Positions 1-63,412 of a DNA stretch of 64,000 nucleotides are shown here, piece by piece. The notes beneath the pieces were generated by a model that saw only the letters and a list, made by a program, of their open reading frames with translations, was not told the DNA's origin and made no database searches. The stretch's first letter is position 1. Every line of letters starts with the position of its first letter. A program made the position numbers and the translations under genes. Source of the stretch: Candidatus Levybacteria bacterium RIFCSPHIGHO2_02_FULL_40_18 (GTDB lineage Bacteria; Patescibacteriota; Microgenomatia; Levybacterales; GWA1-39-11); assembly GCA_001782235.1 (NCBI GenBank), contig MFOC01000007.1:156040-220039 (forward strand), written 5' to 3'.

Positions 1-573
1 AGCGTAAAATCCTTGGCGGGAGGTTGTTTCCATCATAAGTTTAAGGTAATGTTCGAAAGATTCTTTTGAATTGTCTTCGCGAATGCGAACTTTGTGCTTT
101 TGCGCAACGTGAATATTGTAGCGAGTCTTTGAGTGCATGGCCGCGAGCAATTCTTGTTCGGTCTTTGTTAAATCGAGAACAAAGGTGTATTTGGTGAACA
201 AGGGATGTGCCGCAGGTTTTAGGTTAGATTTTAGATCATAGATCTTAGATCTTAGATCTGATTTGACGTTGGGTTCGAGTTGGATAAATATACAATTCTC
301 TTGGCGGCCAATTCGAGTTAGTTCTTCGACAATTTCTTCTGTTGGCAAATTACCTTTCGGGAGATAGCCGATGTAGAGTTTTGTTCGAGGAATTTTGTGA
401 AGAGTAAGAGTGAACCCTTCGGCAAGCTTTTTATTTCGAACAAGTCCGCGGCGAATAACTTTGACTCCGGTTTTTTTGCGGAATTCACCCCACTCACAAG
501 CCTGTAACGGATGGCTTACTACCTTATTGTAATCATCTTTCTTATCAGCGTCTATGTCTATAAAGTCTGTCAT
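1..573 (-). CDS. FemAB-family peptidoglycan aminoacyltransferase (FemX/MurM-like); N-terminal part, runs off window start
   Basis: Reverse-strand ORF from ATG at 573..571 reads MTDFIDIDADKKDDYNKVVSHPLQACEWGEFRKKTGVKVIRRG...HSKTRYNIHVAQKHKVRIRED. The HPLQxxEWGEF-type block and overall pattern are typical of the FemAB family. Missing from the ORF track because it runs off the window edge. Confidence 0.5.
   Translation of the reverse strand, partial: MTDFIDIDADKKDDYNKVVSHPLQACEWGEFRKKTGVKVIRRGLVRNKKLAEGFTLTLHKIPRTKLYIGYLPKGNLPTEEIVEELTRIGRQENCIFIQLEPNVKSDLRSKIYDLKSNLKPAAHPLFTKYTFVLDLTKTEQELLAAMHSKTRYNIHVAQKHKVRIREDNSKESFEHYLKLMMETTSRQGFYA
233..261. repeat. AGATCTT-type heptanucleotide tandem repeat (4 units) inside the FemAB-like CDS
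   Basis: agatcat agatctt agatctt agatctg; encodes DLRSKIYDLK in frame. The same AGATCTT x3 core is found again at 1464..1491. Confidence 0.8.
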
Positions 574-636
574 GGTTAGAATGGTTAAAATGGCTGCATG
601 GTTTTTGACCATGTGACCATTCAACTATGTAACTAT

Positions 637-2571
637 TCATAAATATGTTGGTTCGTCCGTATATCGTTCGATATAATTCTTTTTCAAAACGTCCTCCGGG
701 AGCTCGTAAATAAAGCGGGAAATTTGGTTTGAAACAATTTGTCCAAAATATAATCTTCTTTTTGCAAAAACCAGATACAGTTTTTCTTTTGCGCGCGTAA
801 TCCCTACATAACAAAGTCTTCTTTCCTCCTCAAGTTCATGTGCATCCATCAATGATTGACTGTGAGGAAAAAGCCCCTCCTCCATCCCCACAATAAAGAC
901 AATTTTAAATTCAAGTCCTTTTGCTGCATGCACAGTCATAAGTGTTATTGCATCCTTTTCATCCTTAATAATTTTATCTGGCATGCTTGCCCGAAGCGTT
1001 GAAGAGGAGTATTCTTGCTCAACCAATGCAACATTCTCAAGAAACTGCGTAAGACTAGGAAATTCAATGGCAACAGATCTAAGTTCCTTAATGTTTTCTA
1101 TACGCGACTTATCTTCGGAATCTTTTTCGTCATAGAGTGATGGATAGTCCGTTTTTTTCAAAACTTCATCGAGAATTTCGATTGTAGGGTTTTTATCTAA
1201 ATATCCTCCTGCTTTTGCTTCTTCGAAATAATTCATAAAATTCGAAAGTCTCTTTTTGCCAATTTTTGTTATTCTTTTTAGAGCTACTTTATTCTTGGGA
1301 TTCGCAAGATACGAAAGATATGCCAGAACGTCTTTTATTTCCTTTCGCTCGTAGAATCTTGTTCCGCCAATTAAGATGTATGGGATTGAATTATGTAAAA
1401 AAGTTTCTTCAAGCGCGCGTGATTGAGCATTAGTTCTATACAGGATCGCAATATCGGAAAATTGGATCTTAGATCTTAGATCTTGGATCTTTGTGATTTC
1501 TTGAATTATAAATTCTGCTTCGTTGTGCTCGCTTTCTGCCGGAAAAATTATTATATCTTCACCGCTCTGGTTTTGCGTCCATAGAGAAAGTACAGGGTGC
1601 AATGTGTTGTTCGAAATAACGCTTGTAGCGGCATCCAAAATCTTTTGGGTTGAGCGATAGTTTTGAGAAAGAGGAAAAGTTTTTGCTTCCGGGAAATCTC
1701 GTTTGAATTTCTCAAGATTACGAAAATCCGCGCCTCTGAAGGAATATATGCTCTGCGAAAAATCGCCGACAATGCAAATATTTTTAAATTTTCCACCCAA
1801 GAGTTTTGTCAATTGATATTGAGCTTCATTCGTATCTTGATATTCGTCAACCATAACGTATTGAAATTTGTTTTGGTAGGAAGCCAAGAGTTCAGGAACT
1901 TTTTTGAAAAGTTCGATAGTTTTTAAAAGTAGGTCATCGAAGTCAAGAGCATCTTGATCGCGGAGCAAGCCTTGATAGACGGGATAGACTTTTGCAACTA
2001 TTTCCTGAAAATATCCTCGCGCAATAGATTGATACGTTTCTTCATCAATCATCTGGTTTTTGGCTTGCGAAATCATGGAGAGAACTGCCTGGGGTCTTAC
2101 TTCCTTTGGATTTAAATCAAGAAACGAGAATGTTTCTTTCATCGCCTCAAGCTGATCTTGATCATCAAATATTTGAAAACCAATGGGAATTCCAATAGCT
2201 CTTCCGTCTCGTCGCAGAATCTTGGCGCAAAGGGAGTGGAAGGTTCCAACAATTGGCTGCTCGTGAATTTTATTTTGGGCAAATACTTTTGTAATCCGTT
2301 CAAGCATTTCTCCGGCGGCTTTATTCGTGAAAGTGGTCAATAGGATATTTGATGGTCTGACCTTCTTTTCGAGAACTAAATAAAGTACGCGATGCACAAG
2401 GACTCGGGTTTTTCCAGACCCTGCTCCGGCCAAAACGATCATCGGGCCATCTGTATGGACCACTGCCGCTATTTGTTGATCATTTAATTTATCATGCGGG
2501 TCCTGCCACTTCACAAGGCCGCTCGTGTACGTTTTTCTCAGACCCGCTTGGGTGGTTCGGTTGAGTATCAC
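637..2571 (-). CDS. UvrD/PcrA/Rep-type superfamily-1 ATP-dependent DNA helicase
   Basis: Walker A VLAGAGSGKTRVL and SF1 helicase motifs (TFHSLC, VDEYQDTN, LYRTNAQSRALEE, VHAAKGLEF). The track GTG start at 2571 lies inside a repeat element; an alternative GTG at 2514 would start the gene just outside it. Confidence 0.85.
   Translation of the reverse strand: MILNRTTQAGLRKTYTSGLVKWQDPHDKLNDQQIAAVVHTDGPMIVLAGAGSGKTRVLVHRVLYLVLEKKVRPSNILLTTFTNKAAGEMLERITKVFAQNKIHEQPIVGTFHSLCAKILRRDGRAIGIPIGFQIFDDQDQLEAMKETFSFLDLNPKEVRPQAVLSMISQAKNQMIDEETYQSIARGYFQEIVAKVYPVYQGLLRDQDALDFDDLLLKTIELFKKVPELLASYQNKFQYVMVDEYQDTNEAQYQLTKLLGGKFKNICIVGDFSQSIYSFRGADFRNLEKFKRDFPEAKTFPLSQNYRSTQKILDAATSVISNNTLHPVLSLWTQNQSGEDIIIFPAESEHNEAEFIIQEITKIQDLRSKIQFSDIAILYRTNAQSRALEETFLHNSIPYILIGGTRFYERKEIKDVLAYLSYLANPKNKVALKRITKIGKKRLSNFMNYFEEAKAGGYLDKNPTIEILDEVLKKTDYPSLYDEKDSEDKSRIENIKELRSVAIEFPSLTQFLENVALVEQEYSSSTLRASMPDKIIKDEKDAITLMTVHAAKGLEFKIVFIVGMEEGLFPHSQSLMDAHELEEERRLCYVGITRAKEKLYLVFAKRRLYFGQIVSNQISRFIYELPEDVLKKNYIERYTDEPTYL
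1464..1491. repeat. AGATCTT-type heptanucleotide tandem repeat (4 units) inside the helicase CDS
   Basis: ggatctt agatctt agatctt ggatctt; encodes KIQDLRSKIQ in frame. Shares the 21-nt core with the repeat at 233..261. Confidence 0.8.
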
Positions 2572-2676
2572 ACCTTTATTCCCCCTTCGCTAAATGAAAA
2601 TCGCATATTCACATTTATCTATAAAATAATATTTTTCTTGGGCGATTTTCAGTTGTCTTCGAAAAAGCACACTTCC
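2520..2676 (+). repeat. ~155-bp MITE-like / structured element with terminal inverted repeats, copy 1 (copy 2 at 23954..24106)
   Basis: Shared blocks cgctcgtgtacNtttttctcagacccgct and ccttcgctaaatgaaaatcgcatattcac...tttttcttgNgcgattttcagttgtcttcgaaaaa are about 85-90% identical between copies. The ends are inverted (gtgtacNtttttc / gaaaaaNNNacac). An inner stem gaaaatcgc / gcgattttc is also present. Confidence 0.8.
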
Positions 2677-2719
2677 CGGCCTGGAGTCACTTTCAATATG
2701 CAAATTCGCCTTTAATTTA

Positions 2720-3430: not shown

Positions 3431-4575
3431 ATAATTTTTCAAATAAGAAGAAACTCTTTTTGGTCCTACTTGTTCTGTTTATTTTTTCTCTCGGAGTATT
3501 TATTTTATATAAATTCTATTTCAAGCCCGATATTCAACTTAAAACCGAGAAAAAAACAGGCAATATTAATGTTTTGCTTCTTGGCAAAGCGGGCGGTCAG
3601 CATGAAGGCCCGGATTTAACAGACACCATAATTTTAGCAACTATAAATCCTCAAAAAAACGTAGTTAATCTTATCTCAATCCCAAGAGATCTCTGGATAC
3701 CGGACCTTCAAGCGAAAATCAATACAGCATATGCATATGGGCAAGAGAAAGATCGCCAGGGAAAGCTTTTAGCAAAAACGGCCGTAAGTCAGGTTACGGA
3801 AAAACAAATAGACTATGTTTTAGTTGTTGATTTCCAGGCATTCGTAGATTTGATTGATCATATCGGAGGAATTGACGTAGGTGTTAAAACAATTCTTGAT
3901 GATTATAAATACCCAATTGAAGGCCGCGAGGATGATCCTTGTGATCATACGGATGAAGAGATTATAGACCTTTCAGCCCAGATCGCCACCGGGAGCGCCT
4001 TACCAGAAGATGTATTCCCATGTAGATATAAACACATACATTTTGATGCCGGATTAGTTCATATGGACGGAGAACGAGCCCTAGAGTTTGTCCGGTCGCG
4101 CCACGGCACGAATGGTCAAGGGTCGGATTTTGCAAGAAGCATGCGACAGCAAGATGTTATTAATGCGGTAAGGGATAAGACTTTATCTTTGGGAACACTC
4201 CTTAATCCCATTAAGGTTTTAGGTGCTTTCAATATCATTCAAAACAATATTGATACGAATGCAGAGATCCGTGAGTTAGATGATTTCATAAATTTGGCAA
4301 GAAAAATTCAGGGCGCAAAAATAATAAGTACCGTAATAGACATTGGATCCGGGGAAGGACAAAGGCCAGGATTACTTATACATCCTCCCGTGTCAGAAGC
4401 GCAAAAACTTCAGTGGGTATTAATACCAAGAGTAGGAGACGGAAATTTTTCAGAAATTCATGAGTTTATAAAATGCATCGAAGAAGGATTCGAATGTAAA
4501 ATTGAAGAAGACGGCATTAGTAAGAATACCACGAGTATCAAGAGTACCAAAAGTACCAGAAATATAAAAGACTAA
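3424..4575 (+). CDS. LytR-CpsA-Psr (LCP) family cell-envelope phosphotransferase
   Basis: N-terminal TM, then NVLLLGKAGGQHEGPDLTDTIILATINP...ISIPRDLWIP...INTAYAYG...VVDFQAFVDLIDHIGGIDV, which matches LCP domain hallmarks. The last 15 codons lie in a GTATCA-type repeat. Confidence 0.8.
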   Translation: MLNNFSNKKKLFLVLLVLFIFSLGVFILYKFYFKPDIQLKTEKKTGNINVLLLGKAGGQHEGPDLTDTIILATINPQKNVVNLISIPRDLWIPDLQAKINTAYAYGQEKDRQGKLLAKTAVSQVTEKQIDYVLVVDFQAFVDLIDHIGGIDVGVKTILDDYKYPIEGREDDPCDHTDEEIIDLSAQIATGSALPEDVFPCRYKHIHFDAGLVHMDGERALEFVRSRHGTNGQGSDFARSMRQQDVINAVRDKTLSLGTLLNPIKVLGAFNIIQNNIDTNAEIRELDDFINLARKIQGAKIISTVIDIGSGEGQRPGLLIHPPVSEAQKLQWVLIPRVGDGNFSEIHEFIKCIEEGFECKIEEDGISKNTTSIKSTKSTRNIKD

Positions 4576-4587
4576 AGAAAATGGTTG

Positions 4588-4703
4588 TTGGAAATTAGAA
4601 AATAGTAATGGAGATAGGAAAATAGAAAATAGTTTAAAAACCAATTTCTAACATCTAATTTCCATTACCAATTTCTATTTTCTAATAACTAATTTCTAAC
4701 TCC
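4588..4703. repeat. Palindromic GAAATTAG/GAAAATAG/TAATGGA element, copy 1 (family also at 5866..6025 and 63908..64000)
   Basis: Left arm ggaaattagaaaatagtaatggagataggaaaatagaaaatag; right arm is its approximate reverse complement ...ctaatttccattaccaatttctattttctaat. It fills the convergent gap between the LCP gene and the 4713..6980 gene. Confidence 0.75.
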
Positions 4704-4712
4704 TGATACCTT

Positions 4713-6980
4713 TTAGTTGAGTTTATATATCTTTGTCTGCCCGACTTCAAAAACTACATCTCCGAGCTTTTCAAACTTTGCCTCGTTGATATTATTGTAT
4801 TTTTCGCGTTCAAGATTCCCGAGATAAACATATTTGATATTATGTTTTTTTAGAATCTTTTTCGTTTCGTCTAGATCGTTTGATTCGTAAATTAGTCTCA
4901 CTTCCTCAATTCGAGGTGCCGGAATATCATACGTTCCGCGCCAGAGCCATTCGTGAACTGTCCAACCAAGGACCGTCGGGAGTCCTGTGTTTGCCGATAT
5001 TCGGGCGTAATCCGTATAGGAGTCTCCCTGTGCCTCAACAATAACCGGCCTTCCCTCTATATTTTGGTTTAACCACATGATGGCTTTATAATCATCCGGG
5101 AGTCTGTCTTTCATGTAAGCGATTCCGTCAAGTCCGATAAATTTTCTTAAGTCTCCATAATAAGATTTGATTGCAAAGTAAGGATAGACGAAGACCAATA
5201 TTAAAAATAAAATAGCAAGTAGCAAATATACGTAGTAAACCCCGTTAGACCAATACCGTCTAACGGGGTAAATATTAAAAACTTTAAAACCTTTCGGTTT
5301 GAAACTTACGGCCAATCTCACAATAATATAGCCTGATGAGATTGAAAGCATGATGAAGCTTTGATAGACAAGTTTAAACATAGTGTTCGCGCGATAGTGG
5401 GCAGGATAAATGTCTTTCAAATAGATAAGTTCCGGAGTTATAATTAGTATCGAAGAAAGAAGGATCAAAAGAAAGATAAAAACATCCGAAACTTCAACTT
5501 TGAATTTCTTTTTTTGCCTCCTGATAAAAATGATAAAAGATAAAACGAAAAAGTAAAAAAATCCATAGAGCGTTAATAGTTGCCACCAGGTGCTTCTTTG
5601 GCAGTGGTCTTTTTCAAAAAGAAGTGGTCCAATTTGCCCTATATTTTCTAAAAATTTTGGGGGGCAAACCATGCCGATTCCCTGAGCAAACGGCTTAAAA
5701 TTTAAACTAAAAGGGAGCGTGAATAATACAAATAAAAAGAAGAGCGGTATTATTAACTTTGGTTTGCGAATATAAACAAAGACAAAACCGGCAAGAGCCA
5801 TATAAATTAGTCCGTCCCACGCATTAGTCATATACATAATTGCTAGCAAGAGTGCTAGCAATAAAATTCGAAATTCGAAATTCGAAGTTCTATTAAAAAG
5901 AAATTGGTTTATAGAAATTAGAAAATGGTAATAGAAATTAGATATTAGAAATTGGTATTTTTTGCTATTTTCTATTTTCCAGCTTCCATTACTAATTTCA
6001 ATTTTCTTAGAACTATTTTCCCTTCGTGGGGTTCCATGCCTTTGTATTAATAAGGCATAGAGTAGGGCGATTGTTAAGAGTACGAAAGGAATGTCGATTA
6101 CATGGCCGTGTAAATCCGATACGACAAAAGAATAAATGGGGAATTCGTGGATTGTGAAAGGTATAAATCTTGTCGCATTTGGGTACCAGTAACTATTGGG
6201 AAAAGTAGAAAATAAAAATTGTAAATTCCAAAATGGAACCGGCGCGTCAGTATTATATGAGGCAAAAAACGCATATATTGTATGAAGATTTCCAGCTAAA
6301 GCCACAATAAGGCCTGTTAGAAGTCCTCCTATAAAAGCTTTTCTCAGAGATACGACTTTAGACAAGATATTCGTCCCCAAAGAAAATGATAAGGTCAATG
6401 TAAAAGAAAATAAGGTTGCGATCATTAAGTTATATGAAACAGAGGAAGGCACAAAAGAGATTTCTGTCATAACCGCGGTCACAAGGTGTCCAAAGTAATA
6501 ATAATTTATCGGTAACGGCGGGAACCACATATCAACCGCTGGTTGCCACGTTGTTCGAAGAATCGAGTTCACAAATCCAAAATCCATGAACTTCTCAAGA
6601 CCATTAATACTTGGTTCATGCGCACGAATATAGCTCCAGAAGACAATTCCGGCAAAGAAAAGAAATTCTTCGAATAGAAAAATTTTTGCGAAGGGCTTGA
6701 GTTTATCAATCCTATGCTTTTTAAGAATAAAAATATTTCCGATAAGACAAATCCATAAAATTATTGCAAGAGAGAAAACGCCAAAAGGCAAAAGATGTAG
6801 ACTGTTGACCACAAGAATTATGTAGGAAATAATTCCAATTCCAAGAACCTTTGAGAAAAGAAATCCTCGATCCCAAAAATTCTTGAATATTAAAAAAGTT
6901 AATGGCGCAAATACTATTCCCACCAAAAAGAATGAGCCCCACCACTCTAGAATCCAAACAACTTCTTGAAAGCTAAACAT
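4713..6980 (-). CDS. Polytopic membrane protein with Chlor_Arch_YYY / DUF2298-like region (putative GT-C-like glycosyltransferase)
   Basis: Many TM helices; PINYYYFGHL motif; conserved C-terminal soluble domain (GRPVIVEAQGDSYTDYARISANTGLPTVLGWTVHEW). Contains an in-frame repeat-element-derived segment (see 5866..6025). Confidence 0.5.
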   Translation of the reverse strand: MFSFQEVVWILEWWGSFFLVGIVFAPLTFLIFKNFWDRGFLFSKVLGIGIISYIILVVNSLHLLPFGVFSLAIILWICLIGNIFILKKHRIDKLKPFAKIFLFEEFLFFAGIVFWSYIRAHEPSINGLEKFMDFGFVNSILRTTWQPAVDMWFPPLPINYYYFGHLVTAVMTEISFVPSSVSYNLMIATLFSFTLTLSFSLGTNILSKVVSLRKAFIGGLLTGLIVALAGNLHTIYAFFASYNTDAPVPFWNLQFLFSTFPNSYWYPNATRFIPFTIHEFPIYSFVVSDLHGHVIDIPFVLLTIALLYALLIQRHGTPRRENSSKKIEISNGSWKIENSKKYQFLISNFYYHFLISINQFLFNRTSNFEFRILLLALLLAIMYMTNAWDGLIYMALAGFVFVYIRKPKLIIPLFFLFVLFTLPFSLNFKPFAQGIGMVCPPKFLENIGQIGPLLFEKDHCQRSTWWQLLTLYGFFYFFVLSFIIFIRRQKKKFKVEVSDVFIFLLILLSSILIITPELIYLKDIYPAHYRANTMFKLVYQSFIMLSISSGYIIVRLAVSFKPKGFKVFNIYPVRRYWSNGVYYVYLLLAILFLILVFVYPYFAIKSYYGDLRKFIGLDGIAYMKDRLPDDYKAIMWLNQNIEGRPVIVEAQGDSYTDYARISANTGLPTVLGWTVHEWLWRGTYDIPAPRIEEVRLIYESNDLDETKKILKKHNIKYVYLGNLEREKYNNINEAKFEKLGDVVFEVGQTKIYKLN
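5866..6025. repeat. Palindromic GAAATTAG/GAAAATAG element copy embedded in-frame inside CDS 4713..6980
   Basis: aaattcgaaattcgaaattcgaag...gaaattagaaaatggtaatagaaattag...tttttgctattttctattttccag...ccattactaatttc. It shares a 22-nt exact block (ctggaaaatagaaaatagcaaaaa, reverse complement) with the 63908 copy. It is translated as ENSSKKIEISNGSWKIENSKKYQFLISNFYYHFLISINQFLFNRTSNFEFRI. Confidence 0.7.
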
Positions 6981-11134: not shown

Positions 11135-12786
11135 AATTTATGGTCGGGGTCCTGCCGCTCCGCGTCACCCCTTACTCGTTTAAAAATATAGACTGTTGGT
11201 CTGTCGAATACGCTTGTAGTTTCTTCGAAATTGAATACAGGGTTTCCTAAATAAGTAATTTTGCAAAATATGTCGCATGGCGTTTCATAAATTTTTTTAA
11301 ATCCTAATTTTTCAGAAAGTAGATTTGAATAGAAATTAAAACCATTAGGAAATTTTTCTTTATTAGCGATTCGAGATTTTAATACCCTTTGGCTAGGAGT
11401 AATAAGATAGTCTGCATTTTTTAATTGTTTTTCAAGCTCGATTTTTTTACGGGCACTGCCGTCTAGGTCATAAAAATTAAAAAGAGTGATATTTGGGAGA
11501 TAAGGGTTGAATGGCGTAATTCCAAGGTCATAAACTTCACTTAAAATTTTGGTATCTTTTGGAATATTCCAAGATGCCCATTTGCTTGCGGCAATTCTTG
11601 TGTCCTCTTTTATAAAGACTTCCGATAAATAGGAAAATGCAGAGACCGCATTTGTTAGTACTAAAGCCGCTACAATAACTGTCGCTTGCGTCCTAAAGTT
11701 TCGCAAGATCGTATCCAAAAAATCAACAACACCTATTGAGATAATTAAATATATGAAGGGGAGTGTGGGCACAAGATATCTAGTCCACTTTGCAAATAAA
11801 AGAGCATTTGGAAGAAATAAAATAACAAAAAAGATGCAAGGCATAAGATAGGCAACATTCCTCTTTTTTATTCCGCGATACATTACATAAGGTAGTGCGA
11901 TAATAAACAACAGCGTGAGGATAGGGTTAATAAGAAAAGGCAAAATATCGGTAAATTGGTAAATTACCGGAATAGTTCCAAAGAATTCGCCAGTATAAAA
12001 AACCGGCAAAGAGCCTGTCAAAAGAGAAGCCTCATATGCGAACATATCCCTGAAGTTTCTCGTTAAATAATAAGGAGATGCAAAAAAGGTAAGAAGCAAA
12101 GGGGAGCTTATTAAAAGAAAAAGATATATTGATCCTTGGATTTTATTTATTTTTTTCTCGCGGAGATGCATTACGAATAGCAACACCGGAATTATTAGAA
12201 ATATAAAAGAGTTAATTTTTATCGCCGTTGCTAAACTTACGATTAATATCGACATAAATATGTAAATTAATTTTTTAGTTTTCAGATACATGATCCCTGA
12301 TAAGAGAAGCAGAGAATACATTAAAGTAAGAATGCTCTCATAGACTCCAAAATGTGCCGCTTGAATAAGTCCGACAGAAAACGTTGTAAAAAGAGTTGCG
12401 GCAAGCGTTTGTTGCCATTTCAATGTTTTGTGACCAATAAGAAAGACTATTAAAATCGTAAATATTGACGAAACGCTAGATACAATTCTCAATAATATAA
12501 TGCTTTGGCCAAATGGGTCATTAAGTCCCAAAATACGAAGTATTGGGTCTGTTAAATTTTTGATCACGAATACAATATTTGAGACAAGGGTACCATAGGC
12601 AAAAGTCCCTTTTAAAAGGAAACCTAAGTTACTCCCGTCAAGTGAAGTGATTAAGGAGGCAATATTTCTTTCATCCGGGTGAAAATAAAATGGAGCCCCC
12701 CAATTTAGGTTATAAAAACGAAGGAACCCTCCAACTATCAAGAGAACTATTAGAATTTTTAATTTTAAATTTTTAATTTTAAACAT
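11131..12786 (-). CDS. GT-C fold membrane glycosyltransferase (ArnT/PMT_2-like), paralog of 9467..11134
   Basis: FLRFYNLNWGAPFYFHPDERNIASL after the first TM; polytopic. Start placed at ATG 12786 (MFKIKNLKLKI), which overlaps the upstream gene by 8 nt; the track start at 12948 would overlap it by 170 nt. Confidence 0.5.
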   Translation of the reverse strand: MFKIKNLKLKILIVLLIVGGFLRFYNLNWGAPFYFHPDERNIASLITSLDGSNLGFLLKGTFAYGTLVSNIVFVIKNLTDPILRILGLNDPFGQSIILLRIVSSVSSIFTILIVFLIGHKTLKWQQTLAATLFTTFSVGLIQAAHFGVYESILTLMYSLLLLSGIMYLKTKKLIYIFMSILIVSLATAIKINSFIFLIIPVLLFVMHLREKKINKIQGSIYLFLLISSPLLLTFFASPYYLTRNFRDMFAYEASLLTGSLPVFYTGEFFGTIPVIYQFTDILPFLINPILTLLFIIALPYVMYRGIKKRNVAYLMPCIFFVILFLPNALLFAKWTRYLVPTLPFIYLIISIGVVDFLDTILRNFRTQATVIVAALVLTNAVSAFSYLSEVFIKEDTRIAASKWASWNIPKDTKILSEVYDLGITPFNPYLPNITLFNFYDLDGSARKKIELEKQLKNADYLITPSQRVLKSRIANKEKFPNGFNFYSNLLSEKLGFKKIYETPCDIFCKITYLGNPVFNFEETTSVFDRPTVYIFKRVRGDAERQDPDHKL

Positions 12787-14059
12787 TAAAAATGAACTCG
12801 GATATTTTTTGTCCAAGTTCGACCGCATAATTCGTACCCCTATCCCAGGGGTAGACCTGTTGAATGTTGGCAAGATAAACATTTGGGAGCGGAGTTTCAG
12901 GCGGCGGAATAATTTTTGAATAATTCGTGGGAATGATTGGTTGAGCAAAGGGGGCCTTAAACAATTTATAATTTATAATTGATAATTTATAATTTGGGTT
13001 AATCTTTCGGAGCCAGGGATCGTAGAGCTTGAGAAGTTCGTCTTCAGTCATTTTGAAGCGAGGATCATCTTGTTCGACATAATTCCCTAAATATATAATG
13101 TGTTCATTATTGTAATGTTCATTGTCAATAAAATTTGTGTGTTCAACAATTGCAAGAATTGGAGATTTAGCATCACAAACGCTCAGCCAATAAGTGCCGT
13201 CTGTTAAAAACTGTTTTTTTAAGCGAAGCATTAGATTTAAAGCGCCCAAAGATTTAAGCTTCAAAAGATTTTTTTTATAATCAGCAGGAAGTTGCGGGGC
13301 AATTTTTATAAAGAAAAAAGACGGTAAAGTTACAGTTACCGAATCGAACTCATGATCTTTAACTTTTGACTTTTGACTTATAATTTTGACTTTTGACTTT
13401 TGACTTTTGAGTTCTGTGACTTCGGTATTGTAGTAAAATTTTCCGCCCTTTTTTTCGACCTCTTTTTGTAAATGTTCGGCAAAGCTCAAGAATCCACCTT
13501 CAGGGTAGGCAAGACTTTCGGTTCGTTTATAAACTCGGGCCCAGAACCAAGCAAGCGAAACATCGCCAGCATATTTTCCTAACTTATTCTGCATCAAAGG
13601 TTTCCAGATTTTTAGGTATGCATCTTTCCCCATTGATAGTTCAAGATAGCTTTGCGCGCGAAATCGCTCAAGAGGGCGCCATACGGGATTGTAACGAAGA
13701 GCGGCAAGGGACGCCCCCATTCGAACTCTATCTAAAAAGCCAATTTTTGGGAATTTTAAAAGAGACGTAGGAGAGTCGAGTTGAAAAATTCCGCCATCAA
13801 CAAAGGAGGACGTTTTGGGACGTCGGATTATGACTTTATGGTTAATATCATTTGCCAGTTTTAAAACGCTTTTGTCATTTGTGAACCAATGATGATAATG
13901 TTTTTCCAAAGACCAGTCCCATTCCTTCTCGCGATATCCGACTGCCAAACCCCCTGGTTTTTCATCCTTCTCGAAAACTGTAACATCGTACCCTTTTTGT
14001 GCCAAATAATATGCCGCTGAAAGTCCCGTAAACCCCGCTCCAATAATTCCAATTTTCAT
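12779..14059 (-). CDS. FAD/NAD(P)-binding oxidoreductase (amine oxidase / protoporphyrinogen-oxidase-like fold)
   Basis: MKIGIIGAGFTGLSAAYYLAQKGYDVTVFEKDEKPGG, a Rossmann GxGxxG-x17-E dinucleotide motif. ATG 14059 is preferred over the track TTG at 14092. Contains two in-frame heptamer-repeat segments. Confidence 0.7.
   Translation of the reverse strand: MKIGIIGAGFTGLSAAYYLAQKGYDVTVFEKDEKPGGLAVGYREKEWDWSLEKHYHHWFTNDKSVLKLANDINHKVIIRRPKTSSFVDGGIFQLDSPTSLLKFPKIGFLDRVRMGASLAALRYNPVWRPLERFRAQSYLELSMGKDAYLKIWKPLMQNKLGKYAGDVSLAWFWARVYKRTESLAYPEGGFLSFAEHLQKEVEKKGGKFYYNTEVTELKSQKSKVKIISQKSKVKDHEFDSVTVTLPSFFFIKIAPQLPADYKKNLLKLKSLGALNLMLRLKKQFLTDGTYWLSVCDAKSPILAIVEHTNFIDNEHYNNEHIIYLGNYVEQDDPRFKMTEDELLKLYDPWLRKINPNYKLSIINYKLFKAPFAQPIIPTNYSKIIPPPETPLPNVYLANIQQVYPWDRGTNYAVELGQKISEFIFNV
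12963..12996. repeat. ATAATTT heptanucleotide tandem repeat inside the oxidoreductase CDS
   Basis: ataattt ataattg ataattt ataattt; encodes KLSIINYKL. Confidence 0.7.
13362..13417. repeat. TTTTGAC heptanucleotide tandem repeat (about 8 units) inside the oxidoreductase CDS
   Basis: acttttgacttttgacttataattttgacttttgacttttgacttttgag; encodes SQKSKVKIISQKSKVK. The same TTTTGAC unit recurs intergenically at 53417..53470. Confidence 0.8.
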
Positions 14060-16412: not shown

Positions 16413-16964
16413 TTAAATTTCTTTTAACCGCTGTTTTAATTCTATGGTTAGTTTAAATGAGACTCCGGAAGTTGCAGAAGATACATCGTCTAAAGCCAAT
16501 GAGACAACATTTGGATTTTCTTTAAGCGCTTCTAATAAGTTATTTATCGGGAATATTGAAAAAGCAACCCCATTAATACTAATTGAGCGTTGGCTTACGG
16601 TAAGGTTAGTTGATGAGAAATTACCTTTTGCTACAGAATCAAGAATTTGATTCATAATCTCAATTTTTGCTTGGGTGTCCTCTTCGGTATCTTTTATATT
16701 CAAAAGTCTCTCCTGAATGCTTCTGAAGTCTTTTTCTTTTGCGCTTTGCGCTTTTACAAACAATTCAGACTTTTTTATCTGATCATGCAGGTCTATAATT
16801 TTCCTGTCAATGGTAAATCTGTATATAAGAGCGGTAAGAGCTACTAATTCCGTTACGACAATTACGATTCTTCCAATATTTACAGTCCACTTTAAAAAAT
16901 TATCGGCCACTGAAATGCGAGCTTTACCAATAAGATTAATCTTCACATGAGGTGAATTCGCCAT
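16413..16964 (-). CDS. PilN-like fimbrial assembly protein
   Basis: N-terminal VKINLIG (compare the PilN INLLP motif), one TM, and a coiled-coil periplasmic part. In the printed sequence the ATG is at 16963-16965, and there is a 1-nt discrepancy with the track near 16920. Confidence 0.4.
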   Translation of the reverse strand: MANSPHVKINLIGKARISVADNFLKWTVNIGRIVIVVTELVALTALIYRFTIDRKIIDLHDQIKKSELFVKAQSAKEKDFRSIQERLLNIKDTEEDTQAKIEIMNQILDSVAKGNFSSTNLTVSQRSISINGVAFSIFPINNLLEALKENPNVVSLALDDVSSATSGVSFKLTIELKQRLKEI

Positions 16965-19509: not shown

Positions 19510-19557
19510 AGGAGATACTAGAAACTAGATAATAGTGACTAGGGAATAGTAATTAGG

Positions 19558-20664
19558 ATGGCAGACAGAAAAATAACATATTCCAAAGTTGGAGATAATT
19601 ACGATACAAAAGATCCAATAAAAAAACTCGCTCAGAATGCTGCTCGCTTAACCGCAAACAATCTTCGCAAGCATAATTTTGAAGAAATGCCGGATTCAAG
19701 AGGAGAGTCAGCTTACGTTTGGAAGCAAGGGGATGTCTATATGGCATCTGTTATTGAAGGTTTAGGCACTAAAAATTTAGTTGCTGACGGAACGCGAAAA
19801 ATAACAGGAAAAACCTACTACGACATTATTGCATACGATACCGTTGCCACAATTATCAATGATTTAGTAACAGTTGGAGCCACACCGCTTGTGCTCCACG
19901 CATATTGGGCGATTGAGAATAATGAGTGGCTCTACGATGAAGAACTAATGAAAAACTTAATTTCTGGATGGAAGAAAGCTTGTGACATTGCAGGTGTTTC
20001 GTGGGGAGGAGGAGAAACCGCAACTCTTAAACAAGTTGTGATTAAAGGTGCTTCTGAATTTGGTGGATCGGCTGTCGGAATAATTCGTTCAAAGAAACAC
20101 TTAATAACTGATAATAAATTAAGACCTGGAGATCGTATAGTTCTCATACAAAGTAACGGAATTAATGCGAATGGTATTTCGCTTGCACGAGCAGTTGCAA
20201 AAAAAATAAACGGCGGATACGGAACAAAACTTTCAAATGGGAAGATTTATGGCGAGGCGCTACTTACAAAATCTAATATTTACTCGAAATTAGTTCAAGA
20301 TTTGCAAGATACAAACGTAGATATCCACTATATTTCAAATATTACCGGTCACGGAGTTCGTAAAATAATGCGAGCAAGACCTGCATTTACCTATACTATT
20401 GAGAAAATATTTAAGCCTCAGGAAGTATTTGTTTTTATACAAAAACATGCGGGACTTTCAGATTATGAAATGTATGAAACATATAATATGGGACAGGACT
20501 ACGCAATTTTTGTCTCAAAAAAAGACGTCGAAAAAACCTTAAGACTTGTTCAAAAAAATAAATTCAAAGCAATCGATGCAGGTTACGTTGAACAAGGCAA
20601 GAGACAAGTTATCGTAAAACCCAAAAATATTGTTTATAGTTCTAAGACTCTAAACTTAAGATGA
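19558..20664 (+). CDS. purM: Phosphoribosylformylglycinamidine cyclo-ligase (AIR synthetase)
   Basis: IEGLGTKNLVA, IAYDTVATIINDLVTVGATPL, GGGETA, PGDRIVLIQSNGINANGISL, EMYETYNMG; all align with PurM blocks. Confidence 0.8.
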   Translation: MADRKITYSKVGDNYDTKDPIKKLAQNAARLTANNLRKHNFEEMPDSRGESAYVWKQGDVYMASVIEGLGTKNLVADGTRKITGKTYYDIIAYDTVATIINDLVTVGATPLVLHAYWAIENNEWLYDEELMKNLISGWKKACDIAGVSWGGGETATLKQVVIKGASEFGGSAVGIIRSKKHLITDNKLRPGDRIVLIQSNGINANGISLARAVAKKINGGYGTKLSNGKIYGEALLTKSNIYSKLVQDLQDTNVDIHYISNITGHGVRKIMRARPAFTYTIEKIFKPQEVFVFIQKHAGLSDYEMYETYNMGQDYAIFVSKKDVEKTLRLVQKNKFKAIDAGYVEQGKRQVIVKPKNIVYSSKTLNLR

Positions 20665-23951: not shown

Positions 23952-23953
23952 AC

Positions 23954-43501: not shown

Positions 43502-43515
43502 ATATAATTAAATAG

Positions 43516-51440: not shown

Positions 51441-53452
51441 GGTGAATAGTTGACAGTAACGTCATTTAATACTGGTGCCGCATATACATCGGTGGTAGAA
51501 AAATATGCTTTATACTTAAAGCAGCGTCCTGGATTAACATACCCTTGCGCGTTTGTAAGAAGAGGAATAGCAGACGAGGTTGCAAAGAACGTGTTTGAAG
51601 TTCCGTCCGGCCCCACAAAATAATAAGAGGAATTAGTGCAGCTTCCACCAACATCGGAAGCCACAGCTACTTGAAGCTCCAAATTTGTTCCCAAAGGCTC
51701 AATGAAATTAGGAATAATTCTGTTGTAGGCAACACTTGATCCTGCGTCAAAAGGGCCTGAGACAAAAGTGCCTGAAGTTGTATATTCTCCTCCGGGTCCG
51801 CCTTCAATAACCTTGAGCTCCAAAGGAGCATCCCCGGTGACAATATATGAATAGGCGTCTCCATCTGCTTCAAGAACTGATGCGCTGTCATTAATGCCAA
51901 AGTTCATCTGCATTCCTCCGCATCTGACAGGACTTGCTTCTGTTGAGATATCAATAACCTGATATTCTTCGCCTCCCTGTCCAATAACAACTGCCCGATT
52001 CCCGGGTACAATTTCAACGGCTTTAAGATTAACAGAAGTCCCGGCATTATAAGTGCCTAAATCCGGACAATCACTGCAATTTTTGTTTGTAGTGTTAATT
52101 ATGAAAAATTCGGGCAGTGTGGATGAAGCATCTGTAACAAGATAGGCTCTTGTCGCATCGGAGTTCATGTAAACATCTCTTGCTGCCTCTCCATTTACAT
52201 CTGCCCATCCAACTCGAGTTATGCTGGCCGGGTTTGAGATATTGAAAATCTCAAGTTCTCTTACGTGTCCCGCAATCGAGACAAATGCATAATTTCCCGA
52301 AACCACAACAGACGTTCCGGTCGCAGAGATTGCCGCGCCATCCGGGTCAATTGCGGGACAAGAGCCAGTTCGATTTCCTCCGCTACAGGTGGCAAGATTG
52401 AAATTTCTAAGTCTATTCCCTTGTGTCATATAGCCGGTGTTGCCCACTATAAAAACACTATTTGTGTCGGTATTTCCGAACGCATCAAAGTATCCCGATT
52501 CGGAATATGGAAGGGTAGCCATGTTAATAATAACTATCTCCTTAGAATTCGTGTCTGTTCCTATATATCCATAATTACCTTCTATATAAACATCATTTGT
52601 TTTATAACCGTTAAATGTTCCCGAAATTGTAGCGACAGGTGGATCGGTATTTGTGACGGCAATATCGGCAAGGGATACTCCGGAAGAGTTTTCTCCTGTT
52701 CCTGCCAAGATGCGGCCTTCATATGCCGAGACGGCATTTGCTACTCCACTTTTGGGAAGATCAAGATCTTCGACAATGTACTGATTAGGATTACACCAGT
52801 CACCGCCTCCTCCCGCGCCTAGAGTGACCTCGCCTCCATTGGTGTTTGTAACTATGGTACCCGATAGAGTTCCCGAATTAAAATCGGACTCTGAAGTTTG
52901 CGTAAAAATAGTGTTGTTAAGATAACGAGTTAAATACATGGTCGAGGTGACCCCTGATGGGTATGGAGTATTCCAGGAAACAGTGATAACGCTCTTTTTA
53001 GTTGATGGATCAAGCGTTCCGCTTTCGACAAGATATCCATTAGAATCTCGGTAAGCATCACTTATCGTGATTTGACGCGCGTAGCCGTTAATTGTTTCGC
53101 TTCCTGAGATAAGCTGCCATGAAGGCCCGGATCCTTGAGGATGATAAGTTCCATTTGTTTCAACTTGCGACCAGCTTGTTTCGCGGATTACACGTAAAGC
53201 TTCCTGACCCTCACGCAAAAGCCCCGTTGCCTCAAGTCTCTGCGCATTTTGCGCTTTTCCCTCTCGTGATGCCACAAGCCCTGTTATGAGTCCTGGCAAA
53301 ACAAGCGAGGCAAAGGCCAGAGCCACCAGAAGTTCCACCAATGCCTGTCCATTGTGGCTTCGCCACAATTTTAAAGTTAAAAGTTTAAAGTTAAAAGTTT
53401 TTAAAGAGAAGCTATAATTTTGACTTTTGAATTGTAATTTTGAATTTTGCAT
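51437..53452 (-). CDS. Large (about 640-670 aa) pilin-like protein, candidate minor pilin / tip adhesin
   Basis: HNG|QALVELLVALAFASLVLPGL prepilin-like N-terminus followed by a large beta-rich domain. The true start is probably the in-frame TTG at 53369..53367 (leader MWRSHNG) rather than the track ATG at 53452, which would translate the upstream tandem repeats. Confidence 0.55.
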   Translation of the reverse strand: MQNSKLQFKSQNYSFSLKTFNFKLLTLKLWRSHNGQALVELLVALAFASLVLPGLITGLVASREGKAQNAQRLEATGLLREGQEALRVIRETSWSQVETNGTYHPQGSGPSWQLISGSETINGYARQITISDAYRDSNGYLVESGTLDPSTKKSVITVSWNTPYPSGVTSTMYLTRYLNNTIFTQTSESDFNSGTLSGTIVTNTNGGEVTLGAGGGGDWCNPNQYIVEDLDLPKSGVANAVSAYEGRILAGTGENSSGVSLADIAVTNTDPPVATISGTFNGYKTNDVYIEGNYGYIGTDTNSKEIVIINMATLPYSESGYFDAFGNTDTNSVFIVGNTGYMTQGNRLRNFNLATCSGGNRTGSCPAIDPDGAAISATGTSVVVSGNYAFVSIAGHVRELEIFNISNPASITRVGWADVNGEAARDVYMNSDATRAYLVTDASSTLPEFFIINTTNKNCSDCPDLGTYNAGTSVNLKAVEIVPGNRAVVIGQGGEEYQVIDISTEASPVRCGGMQMNFGINDSASVLEADGDAYSYIVTGDAPLELKVIEGGPGGEYTTSGTFVSGPFDAGSSVAYNRIIPNFIEPLGTNLELQVAVASDVGGSCTNSSYYFVGPDGTSNTFFATSSAIPLLTNAQGYVNPGRCFKYKAYFSTTDVYAAPVLNDVTVNYSP

Positions 53453-53470
53453 TATGAATTTTTAATTTAA
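53370..53470. repeat. Two adjacent 7-nt-periodic tandem repeat arrays (AAAGTTA/AAAGTTT and TTTTGAC/TTTTGAA) between pilin genes
   Basis: ttaaagttaaaagtttaaagttaaaagttttt ... aattttgacttttgaattgtaattttgaattttgcattatgaatttttaattt. Confidence 0.75.
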
Positions 53471-56713: not shown

Positions 56714-56808
56714 AAGACAGACGCCTAATTAAACGCCTACATTTATCATACAATAGGTCGAATTTAGATGCTAGATCTTGGATGATAGATATTAGATAAT
56801 AATTAAAA

Positions 56809-57207
56809 GTGAAAAGGTTAATAAATAGTTTCGATAAGTTAAAAGCGTGGCAAGAGGCTCATAAATTAGTAGTTATGATCTATAAGGTAACAACTAGTTT
56901 TCCGAAACATGAAATGTATAGATTAACAGATCAGCTATGTCGATCAGCAAGTTCGATCGCGGCAATTTTGGTTGAGGGTAATTCGCGAGGTTCAAGAAAA
57001 GAGTATATTCATTTCGTTTTCCAAGCAAGAGCATCCTTAGAAGAACTTAAGTATCACCTTCTACTGGCAAAAGACCTAGGTTATTTAGATGAAAGCTTAT
57101 ATAATAAGTTAATGGCACAGGTAGATTTGGTTGGGAAACTAATTAATGGCCTACTTCGATACTTAAAATCTAGTAGAAATGTCCAATATCCAAAATCTAA
57201 TATCTAA
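56809..57207 (+). CDS. Four-helix-bundle protein (TIGR02436; 23S rRNA intervening-sequence protein / DGR Avd-like family), standalone
   Basis: FDKLKAWQEAHKLVVMIYKVTTSFPKHEMYRLTDQLCRSASSIAAILVEGNSRGSRKEYIHFVFQARASLEELKYHLLLAKDLGYL matches the family consensus. Confidence 0.8.
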   Translation: MKRLINSFDKLKAWQEAHKLVVMIYKVTTSFPKHEMYRLTDQLCRSASSIAAILVEGNSRGSRKEYIHFVFQARASLEELKYHLLLAKDLGYLDESLYNKLMAQVDLVGKLINGLLRYLKSSRNVQYPKSNI

Positions 57208-57224
57208 TATCTAATATCAAAATT
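57186..57224. repeat. CTAATAT heptanucleotide tandem repeat between the four-helix-bundle gene and the dehydrogenase gene
   Basis: atatccaaaat ctaatat ctaatat ctaatat caaaatt. Confidence 0.7.
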
Positions 57225-61202: not shown

Positions 61203-61258
61203 GTGACAAAATATTATAGAGATAAATCATATTAAAGTCGAGGGGCGTATTTTAGATA

Positions 61259-62638: not shown

Positions 62639-62646
62639 AAATTTTC

Positions 62647-63315
62647 CTATATAAAATCAGATTCTCCCTCTTTTTTAGAACCATTTTTTGGTTCCTTTGT
62701 GGACTTAGAGTTATTTAAATCTTGGCCATTACCAGGTGTGCTTGTGATGATTGTTTTTGGGTGGGCAATTGGCTCAGGTAATTCTCCCAACATTTTCTTA
62801 ACTAAGGATTTATTTGCCCTTTCCATTTGTCCTAAGATAGCGCGCTCTATGTAGGCTGCGTCAATTCTCTCAAGCATTTTTTCAAGCTGAGGATCGGGTT
62901 TTTTAATTCCAAGCTCGCGCCTTATTTCTGCCAAAACCTCGAGAATTTTTGTTATCTCTTCTTCGGCTATCAAATTTATTCCCATGTGGACTTCATCGCG
63001 AATAGTTGAAATATATGCGCTTCTGTTTTGAGACACAAGTACAAATATTGCAAGGAATATTGCCTCAAGAGATACGACCATTGTAAGAAGACCAAAAGGG
63101 AAAGGGTCAAAAGGAACAATCCACGGAACATAATCAAGGTTTATAGTAACCCACCCAGTAAAAAATAGAACGTGAAATAATAAAAATGGGGTGGAGCCGC
63201 AAATTGCGGTTAGATCATCCGCAATTTGGGTAAGAAAGGAACGTCCGCGCAGGGATTTAGCCTCAAAAGATTTAAAGAATTGCCGCCGTGTTTCTGATCT
63301 CTTAAGAGATGCCAT
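62647..63315 (-). CDS. DUF1003-family membrane protein
   Basis: IADDLTAICGSTPFLLFHVLFFTGWVTINL...DPFPFGLLTMVVSLEAIFLAIFVLVSQNR matches the DUF1003 consensus. Confidence 0.6.
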   Translation of the reverse strand: MASLKRSETRRQFFKSFEAKSLRGRSFLTQIADDLTAICGSTPFLLFHVLFFTGWVTINLDYVPWIVPFDPFPFGLLTMVVSLEAIFLAIFVLVSQNRSAYISTIRDEVHMGINLIAEEEITKILEVLAEIRRELGIKKPDPQLEKMLERIDAAYIERAILGQMERANKSLVKKMLGELPEPIAHPKTIITSTPGNGQDLNNSKSTKEPKNGSKKEGESDFI

Positions 63316-63316
63316 A

Positions 63317-63412
63317 CTTAAAAAGTATCATACTTTTTAAGAAATTTCCAATTACCAATTGCCAGTTTCCAATGATTAACTGGCAAATGGAAACTGGAAA
63401 CTGGAGATTTCT
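63317..63412. repeat. Two consecutive palindromes: a perfect 12-bp hairpin abutting the DUF1003 start codon, and a 7-nt-periodic palindromic array (CCAATT / GGAAACT units)
   Basis: cttaaaaagtat-c-atactttttaag (63317-63342); ttccaattaccaattgccagtttccaatgattaactggcaaatggaaactggaaactgg (63345-63412). Confidence 0.6.

Follow-up and report, generated by a model that had tools for sequence, protein, structure and literature searches.

A stretch of 64,000 nt from the genome of Candidatus Levybacteria bacterium RIFCSPHIGHO2_02_FULL_40_18, a groundwater organism of the candidate phyla radiation without cultured representatives (contig MFOC01000007.1, positions 156,040 to 220,039; referred to below as the window) contains numerous short arrays of tandemly repeated heptanucleotides, which are located both between genes and within them. 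With a probability of roughly 70%, we regard these arrays as slippage-prone heptanucleotide simple-sequence repeats (SSRs), that is, long-unit bacterial microsatellites, which are filtered by selection when they occur inside genes. They belong to an already published phenomenon and represent neither a new class of process nor a genome-specific one.

The window was surveyed with Tandem Repeats Finder (TRF) at a permissive threshold, which returned 77 rows; overlapping rows were merged into non-redundant arrays, and fifty 3rd-order Markov shuffles of the window served as the null for period counts. Period 7 was represented by 24 non-redundant arrays versus 2.1 expected per 64 kb (an approximately 11-fold excess) and period 14 by three versus 0.5. 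Periods 6 and 8 were near background, with two arrays each (0.7 and 2.2 expected); the excess of period 7 over its neighbours that had been predicted in a preliminary description of this DNA, made from the sequence alone, is therefore real. The rise at period 9 (13 arrays versus 2.4 expected) is that expected of coding DNA. Exact tandem repeats with at least three copies numbered four at period 7 (0.0 expected) and zero at all other periods from 4 to 12, while exact period-7 repeats of two to fewer than three copies were threefold over-represented (16 versus 5.1 expected). The base-match autocorrelation of the intergenic sequence peaked at lags 7, 14, and 21. Across 138 kb of DNA from Levybacteria, runs of four or more anchored on a trinucleotide occurred 79 times at period 7 and 8, 3, and 10 times at periods 6, 8, and 9, respectively.

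The head-to-tail arrangement of the 7-nt units was seen both by TRF and by direct reading of the sequence in 7-nt rows. The arrays range in length from 15 to 61 nt and cover 1.5% of the window. When placed relative to the gene calls attached to matching contigs, they account for 488 of 3972 intergenic bases (12%) and for well under 1% of the coding sequence; of the 32 spacers with a length of 25 nt or more, 8 contain an array. Fourteen of the 15 arrays listed in the preliminary description were recovered at their places by TRF and by reading. The remaining one, a lepA segment (22270-22400) held to be a CCAAACC-type heptamer repeat, shows a period of 6/12 (CCAAAC, 22376-22400) and none of 7 by TRF. 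About ten further arrays were added to the list: 4591-4632, 4643-4699, four in one DUF2298 gene (5528-5979), 25738-25787, 25980-26035, 56764-56801, and 63907-63967.

The proteins encoded in the window are identical to those on contig MFPG01000011.1 (assembly GCA_001782635.1), and the same clone has been assembled independently in many ENA, JGI, and NCBI assemblies; its LepA was present in 47 blocks of our contig collection. Most of the near-clonal assemblies compared were 100% identical to the window over 14-22 kb, arrays included, and contigs L081-L087 were 100% identical to it around LepA and in the 47-64 kb region. Because independent assemblies of the clone are identical, the arrays are not assembly artefacts. 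The suspicion that they result from faulty assembly, or are a by-product of AT-rich low-complexity sequence, could draw on scaffold L098, which breaks with an N-gap exactly at the array starting at 19513. It is refuted by the recovery of the same array sequences by different assemblers in NCBI, JGI, and ENA, by array lengths below that of a sequencing read, and by composition-preserving shuffles, which show no period-7 peak. Scaffold L098 corresponds to ANAN16-1 scaffold_915, in which most of the array at 19513 is replaced. The apparent 158-nt insertion at this site (L098 3125-3318, corresponding to window 19526-19561) consists of unrelated sequence with an N-gap and is most likely a scaffolding join; it was not counted as natural variation.

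The arrays vary in copy number among natural assemblies, a point that the preliminary description had proposed to check. The sole difference between the window and contig L095 (ERZ27254756) in 21.1 kb is the loss of 7 nt, corresponding to one CGAATTT unit, from the array at 5864-5890 in the gene for a DUF2298 membrane protein. The same deletion was found in contig L091 (ERZ27254759) together with two single-nucleotide polymorphisms (SNPs), one of which is located inside a GTCAAAA array (13358-13410) of an amine-oxidase-like gene. The copy number of the DUF2298 array sets the reading frame: with one unit fewer, the gene is frameshifted and split, and is called as 372 + 374 or 372 + 362 aa (372 + 362 in L095). 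In contig L094 (ERZ27254845), the sole difference in 12.6 kb is that the GTCAAAA array is 27 nt shorter, with the frame intact; the lost block comprises 7+7+7+6 nt and encodes SQKSKVKII. A read-derived variant of a FemAB-like protein (P0162), known at the protein level only, is devoid of RSKIYDL, i.e. 7 aa, 21 nt, or three units. Two pattern scans of a separate metagenome contig collection, for length alleles of the arrays at 53370-53468 and 5864-5956, had no hits, as the contigs in question are evidently not part of it. In each of the three contigs with a clean indel relative to the window (L091, L094, and L095), every indel is inside an array. The clone is thus a clear case from nature: apart from changes of array units, no clean length difference was found between genomes that are otherwise identical.

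Several of the substitutions also map to arrays or their vicinity. The SNP at 13402, in the GTCAAAA array, is shared by L091 and L098, and the single SNP in L097 is located 5 nt from an array. Contig L096 contains six SNPs in 22 kb, all within 53339-53412, and those at 53377 and 53384 affect the same unit position in adjacent units; this cluster should be treated with caution, as a sequencing error is possible. Contigs L083 and L090 diverge from the window only at chimeric contig ends. Such ends, which lie in the GroEL gene or at the 5' end of the amine-oxidase gene and switch to the sequence of a related organism, occur in L083 (from 14185) and in L090 and L091 (near window positions 13900-13978), and call for caution in variant calling from these assemblies.

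About a dozen arrays are located inside genes; unless stated otherwise, those given here were assigned to the minus strand. The FemAB-like gene carries 5.1 copies of the sense unit AAGATCT (224-259; TRF), which encode residues 105-117, SDLRSKIYDLKSN. The same unit, in 3.9 copies, encodes KIQDLRSKI (residues 342-350) in the gene for a UvrD/PcrA-like helicase (1465-1491; TRF and reading). The four arrays of the DUF2298 gene are composed of AAAAGAT (5528-5558, residues 475-485; TRF), AAATTCG (3.9 copies, 5864-5890, residues 364-373; the polymorphic array), TAGAAAT (6.1 copies, 5912-5953, residues 343-357), and, in a short array of 2.7 copies, TTTTCTA (5961-5979, residues 334-340). In the amine-oxidase-like gene, 4.7 copies of the sense unit ATAAATT (12963-12995; site 1) encode PNYKLSIINYKL, a segment of conserved length, while 7.7 copies of the sense unit GTCAAAA at the polymorphic site encode LKSQKSKVKIISQKSKVK in a variable hairpin loop. 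An AATTTTT/period-14 array (12754-12783) runs across the stop codon of the amine-oxidase gene and codons 1-11 of the gene that follows, in which it encodes FKIKNLKLKI at the N-terminus of a 551-aa protein. The last nine residues of LigT are encoded by an AACTGGA/GGAAACT array (63378-63405, no strand assigned). Finally, an AAAGTTA/period-14 array (53370-53400) lies in the start region of a gene for an LVIVD-repeat protein and is coding or part of the 5' leader depending on the start used.

A 7-nt unit read through three frames gives a peptide period of 7 aa (21 nt). Pure repeats would be translated as KSQKSKV for (GTCAAAA)n, KI*DLRS for (AAGATCT)n, and NYKL*II for (AATTATA)n, with asterisks denoting stop codons. 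In the actual arrays, another codon stands, exactly at every third unit, where the pure repeat would have an in-frame TAA: CAA or TAT in the UvrD and FemAB genes (TAT in FemAB; in UvrD, units 1 and 4 read TTG instead of TTA on the plus strand, which removes the in-frame TAA), and TCA in the amine-oxidase array at 12963-12995. As judged from the sequence, this regular patching appears to be the signature of selection cleaning up the repeat. The preliminary description had attributed the preserved frame to array lengths compatible with it, for example 3 x 7 = 21 nt; the in-gene arrays are 19 to 53 nt long and are not multiples of 21. Its statement that every coding copy keeps the frame applies within the window, but not to the natural DUF2298 allele, which is one unit shorter and splits the gene. 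Frame preservation in the coding copies reflects survivorship, since the stops have been patched and frame-breaking alleles exist too.

Alignments with orthologous proteins located in-gene arrays in poorly constrained segments. The segment of about 45-55 aa that includes the DUF2298 array 5912-5953 is absent from a relative, L093, and contains a ten-copy TTTCAAA array instead in another one, L092. The FemAB array lies in a variable loop, in which the L092 orthologue has other heptamer arrays. The GTCAAAA array of the amine-oxidase gene corresponds to a hairpin loop of 23-25 aa whose sequence varies across 76 homologues. The array-encoded segment of UvrD is of equal length in the L092 orthologue. 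In the comparison of orthologous enzymes, which the preliminary description had proposed, heptamer-encoded segments are absent or replaced in DUF2298, replaced in FemAB, and constant in length in UvrD and at amine-oxidase site 1.

The amine-oxidase alignment revealed another type of insertion. Homologues P0012, P0014, P0016, P0017, P0021, and P0029 have GC-rich inserts of 20-30 aa in one and the same loop (alignment columns 255-320). These inserts, for example GVTRSGGPP...RQDPEQ and GGAGGKAPDTRAV...ATGPR, recur from one protein to another, which gives the impression of a small element entering this loop in frame.

The nearest relatives of the window's LepA are found in metagenome-assembled genomes of Patescibacteria (candidate phyla radiation). 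Locus L001, whose LepA is 77% identical and whose genes are 63-78% identical at the DNA level (BLASTN), has heptamer arrays at orthologous places: at both amine-oxidase sites, at the junction of the amine-oxidase gene and the next gene, in the MurJ-PurM spacer, before and after GroEL, and before TatD. The units are partly different, with ACAGTCC at the amine-oxidase junction, TAGATCA-type heptamers before GroEL, and a TAG-anchored array after it. L092, with an amine oxidase 67% identical to that of the window, has arrays at the same amine-oxidase, DUF2298, and FemAB sites; its units are identical at both amine-oxidase sites, including site 1, where the unit has diverged in L001. In about 21 kb each, L001, L092, and L093 contain eight, nine, and about five period-7 arrays, respectively. 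Per 100 kb, the window has 37.5 period-7 and 4.7 period-14 arrays. Across 28 loci from the candidate phyla radiation, the density of period-7 arrays is 13.4 per 100 kb versus 3.3 in shuffled sequences; the corresponding values are 6.9 versus 3.3 for Bacteroidota loci and 5.8 versus 5.6 for other phyla. The description of the arrays as unusual and genome-specific could not be maintained, given that relatives and other loci of the candidate phyla radiation share the excess, which has also been published for other bacteria. Individual units of the in-gene arrays match the consensus of their own array at 0.73-0.89 and that of the orthologous array at 0.46-0.68. This pattern is one of concerted evolution, the in-gene arrays having been homogenised separately in each lineage.

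In the SSR interpretation, copies would be gained and lost when strands slip or misalign, in a 7-nt register, as DNA is replicated or repaired, and the same slippage would homogenise the units within an array, resulting in concerted evolution. The preference for seven nucleotides would stem from the replication or repair machinery, after Mrázek and colleagues, rather than from sequence recognition; a polymerase footprint has been proposed as its source in the literature. Selection would then determine the survivors, namely arrays in some spacers, those at 3' ends with hairpin-forming inverted pairs, and those in poorly constrained protein segments. Within genes, stops made by the repeat would be patched and mostly changes compatible with multiples of three would persist, while other unit changes would act as frameshift switches, as seen once, in DUF2298. 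The heptamer-specific process envisaged in the preliminary description stands insofar as there is a 7-nt register without a single unit sequence and the variants differ by whole units or blocks; it is neither genome-specific nor unusual in kind. Nothing in the data points to the footprint of a nickase, a primase, or a sequence-specific DNA-binding protein.

Several observations weigh against slippage and selection as the full account. The number of independent polymorphic events is only three or four, and about 75 kb of this genome was covered. The constant length of the UvrD segment and of amine-oxidase site 1 indicates that simple expansion is not the whole story; at these two places, the repeats overwrite existing sequence and do not only add to it. 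Moreover, the units are not unrelated to one another, as had initially been thought. Among the 26 consensus units, 66 of 325 pairs are within one mismatch when rotation and strand are allowed, versus 28.5 ± 4.8 in composition-matched shuffles, and seven pairs are identical versus 1.7 expected. The network of related units is centred on AGAAATT, TAGAT, and GTCAAAA. This excess likeness across loci suggests a sequence preference or a shared origin of the units. The last point concerns the spacer arrays anchored by TAG or CTAG, in which four positions are invariant and three are variable, the same ones in the window and in L001, and the units are no nearer to their own consensus than to that of the orthologue. 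This pattern counts against slippage alone because slippage with homogenisation should treat all seven positions alike.

Two arrays on the plus strand display the (C)TAG pattern most clearly. One, with the unit NANTAGN and six TAGs spaced 7 nt apart (19513-19556), fills the 48-nt MurJ-PurM spacer and ends 1 nt before the PurM ATG. The other consists of five copies of TNNCTAG (28077-28111), with a TATAAT box on one side and, at a distance of 3 nt, the TatD ATG on the other. The L001 orthologues of both arrays keep TAG or CTAG and vary at the same positions. A further TAG-anchored array of period 7/14 (TTAGATG, ATAGATA; 56764-56801, plus strand) lies in a divergent spacer, 7 nt before a bAvd-like gene. 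With three TAGs spaced 7 nt apart, all three frames meet a stop codon; with CTAG, this applies to both strands.

The remaining spacer arrays are of different composition. On the plus strand, an A-rich array of 7.3 AATATAA copies (25738-25787) fills the spacer after GroES, a T-rich one of 8.1 AATATTT copies (25980-26035) ends 4 nt before the GroEL ATG, and a TCTTAGC/TCTTGGC array (27678-27712) begins right after the GroEL stop codon. A TCTAATA/TCCAATA array (57178-57223) covers the end of the bAvd-like gene and a 17-nt spacer, ending 1 nt before the ATG of a 2-hydroxyacid dehydrogenase gene. On the minus strand, 7.7 copies of AATTTTG/TTTTGAC (53416-53468) cover the stop codon of a pilin-like gene and the annotated start of the LVIVD-repeat gene. 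Upstream of LigT, with no strand assigned, 8.9 copies of AATTAGA (63907-63967) directly precede the start codon, and the same spacer contains a short two-copy CCAATTT repeat (63980-63994). In general, single arrays nearly fill short spacers and end 0-7 nt before the start of the genes for PurM, a 63-aa open reading frame (ORF), GroEL, TatD, 2-hydroxyacid dehydrogenase, LigT, and the bAvd-like protein. As RNA, single spacer arrays are unstructured, with z-scores from -1.75 to +0.33 (-1.75, not significant, for the TAG array 19513-19556; 0.31 for 25738-25787; -0.79 for 25980-26035; and 0.33 for 53416-53468).

These features raise the question of whether spacer arrays, above all those with (C)TAG, are selected cis-elements. 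They could act as unstructured periodic mRNA leaders or intercistronic pads, either by placing stops in all frames shortly before the next start, to the benefit of termination and re-initiation, or by binding a protein that occupies about 7 nt per monomer (such as S1 or a cold-shock protein with an OB fold). We regard this as possible, though not probable. The invariance of (C)TAG over five to six successive units and the confinement of variation to the same three positions in the window and L001, despite gene DNA identities of 63-78%, argue for such a role, as does the lack of structure in single spacer arrays. The tetranucleotide CTAG is strongly avoided in the window, with 66 occurrences where base composition predicts 225, yet nine of its occurrences are located in arrays, which cover so small a part of the sequence. 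The top period-7 anchors include TAG and CTA (0.0 such runs expected), two trinucleotides whose overall frequency is about 0.55 times the expected one. A Shine-Dalgarno-like motif was seen in only about 5 of the 61 genes of the window, and many genes are preceded by a TATAAT box, 6-12 nt from the ATG (e.g. 22035-22052 and 61203-61258), which suggests that leaderless or Shine-Dalgarno-independent translation may be widespread in this Levybacteria genome. A precedent is provided by TAACTGA repeats upstream of start codons in Beggiatoaceae and cyanobacteria, for which roles of S1 and cold-shock proteins have been considered (PMC4679880). On the other hand, start-proximal arrays differ widely in units and composition (A-rich, T-rich, or TAG-type), most spacers of at least 25 nt are free of arrays, and, since arrays nearly fill short spacers, an adjoining start codon is almost forced. 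Stop triplets are common by chance in AT-rich heptamers, and L092 and L093, which are more distantly related Levybacteria, have no TAG arrays. The notion of (C)TAG arrays as selected leaders or re-initiation pads is, at this point, speculation.

In contrast to single arrays, some paired arrays are highly structured. The three strongest inverted repeats of the window all consist of heptamer arrays. In the convergent LytR-DUF2298 spacer, a GAAAATA/AAATTAG-type array (4591-4632) forms the left arm of a hairpin, and 8.3 copies of AATTTCT (4643-4699), the reverse complement of the left-arm unit family, form the right one; neither was assigned a strand. The corresponding inverted repeat, I1, pairs 4576-4635 with 4638-4697, with 60-nt arms that are 75% complementary, and the RNA fold of 4576-4697 has an energy of -43.2 kcal/mol (z = -7.5). 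A second hairpin (63345-63409; -38.8 kcal/mol, z = -7.8) straddles the LigT stop codon. One of its arms is an AATTTCC array (63343-63373, no strand assigned; inverted repeats I3 and I5), and the other is the array encoding the LigT C-terminus. The third inverted pair sits inside the DUF2298 gene, where 5912-5953 is paired with 5863-5895 (I2); the short array at 5961-5979 belongs to inverted repeat I10. Intrinsic Rho-independent terminators were considered for the array hairpins and rejected, as the stems are long, AT-rich, and very stable, and have no T-run; no terminator-like sites with a GC-rich stem and U-tract were found in 4400-4900 and 63200-64000. The whole window contained no match to an Rfam family.

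The prominence of heptamers in the strongest inverted repeats might be taken to mean that the arrays, and the inverted pairs in particular, derive from small mobile elements, resembling miniature inverted-repeat transposable elements or the small dispersed repeats of Nostoc, copies of which have inserted in spacers and genes. Related or identical units do occur at distant loci, namely AAGATCT at 224 and 1465 and the AGAAATT family at 4591, 4643, 5912, and 63907. We nevertheless judge this origin very unlikely: the arrays have no shared termini, target-site duplications, or common length, several in-gene arrays leave protein length unchanged, and arrays are positionally orthologous across genera. 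Furthermore, the polymorphisms are indels of single units or unit blocks, not the presence or absence of whole elements.

Two genes of the 23S_rRNA_IVP/bAvd family are located about 8 kb apart, one in the window (56809-57207) and one in contig L084 (18284-18718). Mutagenesis by a diversity-generating retroelement was considered on account of these bAvd-like genes and rejected: no reverse transcriptase is present within the window, and the variation consists of unit indels rather than adenine-directed substitutions.

In-gene arrays could also be adaptive contingency loci, which switch envelope-related genes or vary surface loops, for phage evasion or for attachment of an episymbiont to its host. 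The DUF2298-splitting 7-nt allele was found in two independent assemblies, and DUF2298 lies among genes for LytR_cpsA_psr, GT4, PMT_2, and methyltransferase proteins, which make up an envelope-glycosylation neighbourhood. FemAB and the amine-oxidase loop have length alleles that keep the frame, and the neuO gene of Escherichia coli provides a precedent. However, the tracts are not typical of contingency loci, being short (3-8 units) and imperfect, arrays are also present at housekeeping genes (in UvrD and upstream of GroEL), and the single frameshift allele could be a deleterious minority variant. An adaptive switching function is therefore rather unlikely in our view. A more far-reaching scenario, to which we give little credence, would combine these ideas: a lineage-wide, sequence-blind process with a 7-nt register might rewrite short stretches of DNA in Levybacteria and some other lineages of the candidate phyla radiation, and its products might be exploited as frameshift or loop-length switches of envelope genes, DUF2298 first, and as selected (C)TAG spacer pads for all-frame stops and re-initiation, or periodic protein-binding leaders, in a genome nearly devoid of Shine-Dalgarno motifs. 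If this were true, the arrays would have a function in the gene expression of these bacteria and would not be slippage debris that is simply tolerated.

Comparison with known repeat systems favours the SSR interpretation. In accounts of Mrázek's 2007 work given by later papers, heptanucleotides are the most abundant class of long SSRs, and polymerase slippage is proposed as their cause (PMC4679880, PMC4692102); an excess of heptanucleotides is documented in Burkholderia, Xanthomonas, cyanobacteria, and others (PMC4679880, PMC4692102). As far as those accounts go, the long SSRs of Mrázek, Guo and Shah (2007) resemble the arrays studied here in the over-representation of 7-nt units, the many different units per genome, the higher density in intergenic regions, and the proposed slippage by 7 nt. 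Within the same limits, the arrays of the window differ from them in the many in-gene copies with patched stops, the positional orthology across genera, and the unit indels at the population level. As far as the searched literature shows, a heptamer excess in the candidate phyla radiation has not been described; searches combining this group with heptamers, simple-sequence repeats, or phase variation gave nothing relevant.

Short tandem heptamer arrays dispersed through the genome, largely in spacers, are also known as short tandemly repeated repetitive (STRR) sequences of cyanobacteria. The STRR units described by Mazel in 1990 are reportedly CCCCAGT, TTGGTCA, and CAACAGT. None of these three was found in any rotation or reverse complement among the 26 consensus units. 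An assignment to the cyanobacterial STRR was rejected, as LepA and all other proteins are those of Candidatus Levybacteria and the units differ: they are AT-rich here (AGAAATT, TAGAT, and GTCAAAA families), the phylum is another one, and there is no sign of shared ancestry. STRR heptamers of the heterocystous genera Calothrix and Nostoc are mentioned in PMC4692102. TAACTGA repeats occur in marine Beggiatoaceae, Microcystis, and some Bacteroidetes, in arrays that lie upstream of start codons and are occasionally translated (PMC4679880). Like the arrays of the window, they comprise 2-8 heptamers, often directly before start codons, sometimes give rise to peptides with a 7-aa period in ORFs, and have other heptamers mixed in (PMC4679880); weak use of Shine-Dalgarno motifs would be a further trait in common with their host taxa. 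In contrast to the TAACTGA systems, no single unit is dominant here, and TAACTGATAACTGA (tandem TAACTGA) had no match in the window with up to two mismatches.

The heptameric GGGAATC/GGGGAYT repeats of Xanthomonas and Nostoc, for which inverted pairs were noted in Xanthomonas (PMC4692102), are likewise intergenic, form stem-loops by some inverted pairs, and vary in length and sequence at the same spacer between relatives. They are G-rich and quadruplex-forming, whereas the arrays of the window are AT-rich and have no G-runs. In-gene heptanucleotide tracts are exemplified by neuO of E. coli K1, which is ON only at copy numbers divisible by 3 (PMC13001214). As in the DUF2298 allele, the frame is set by the copy number of a heptamer tract in the coding sequence, and a change by one unit truncates the product. 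In neuO, however, there are 3-53 perfect copies at the 5' end and switching is proven to be reversible, whereas the arrays described here consist of 3-8 imperfect copies in internal loops and their alleles are known from assemblies alone. The repeats within genes of Borg elements are said to have units that are multiples of 3 and much longer; the unit here has 7 nt and a peptide period of 7 aa (21 nt), so that it is not divisible by 3. In Borg elements, tandem repeats are pervasive and fast-evolving, both between and within genes (PMC9879509), and, as in the window, those inside genes create new low-complexity protein segments.

The present data add the candidate phyla radiation, whose members are extremely streamlined and uncultured and have little DNA to spare, to the bacteria with an excess of heptanucleotide microsatellites. 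Reads from the Rifle metagenomes now allow two questions to be addressed: where the 7-nt register comes from, and whether the arrays switch reading frames, generate loops, or act as translation signals. Annotators of such genomes should bear in mind that a split gene or an odd low-complexity loop can be an allele produced by repeat slippage.

Some repeats of the window are outside the main set or of other periods. Two weak two-copy heptamers may be due to chance: TTTGCGC in a hypothetical gene (16738-16754, minus strand), which is outside the network of related units, and AAGAACA in a ClpB-like gene (44356-44370, plus strand). A weak period-14 repeat was detected by TRF in a purN-like gene (20834-20865, plus strand). 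One in-frame stop (…ETEKT*GIGPY…) interrupts this formyltransferase gene (20661-21368), and all assemblies have two ORFs there; a pseudogene, read-through, or recoding could be involved. Two intergenic arrays are non-heptameric: AGTTCGTAA (period 9/18, 4.4 copies; 43514-43553) precedes the ClpB-like gene, and a repeat of 18 nt lies at 36795-36833. Compared with L093, the lepA segment mentioned above (residues 73-116) contains an insertion of some 37 aa; in L001, the insertion at this site amounts to 9 aa. In the window, the 3' part of the insertion is the in-frame hexanucleotide CCAAAC repeat, the fold of which is not significant (z = -1.25). Finally, a dispersed repeat of about 150 nt is present in two copies that are 84% identical, one in the divergent UvrD-TIM spacer (2520-2674) and the other in the convergent spacer between LepA and the hypothetical gene hyp399 (23953-24104). 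It matched no Rfam family and may represent a small RNA or a miniature mobile element.

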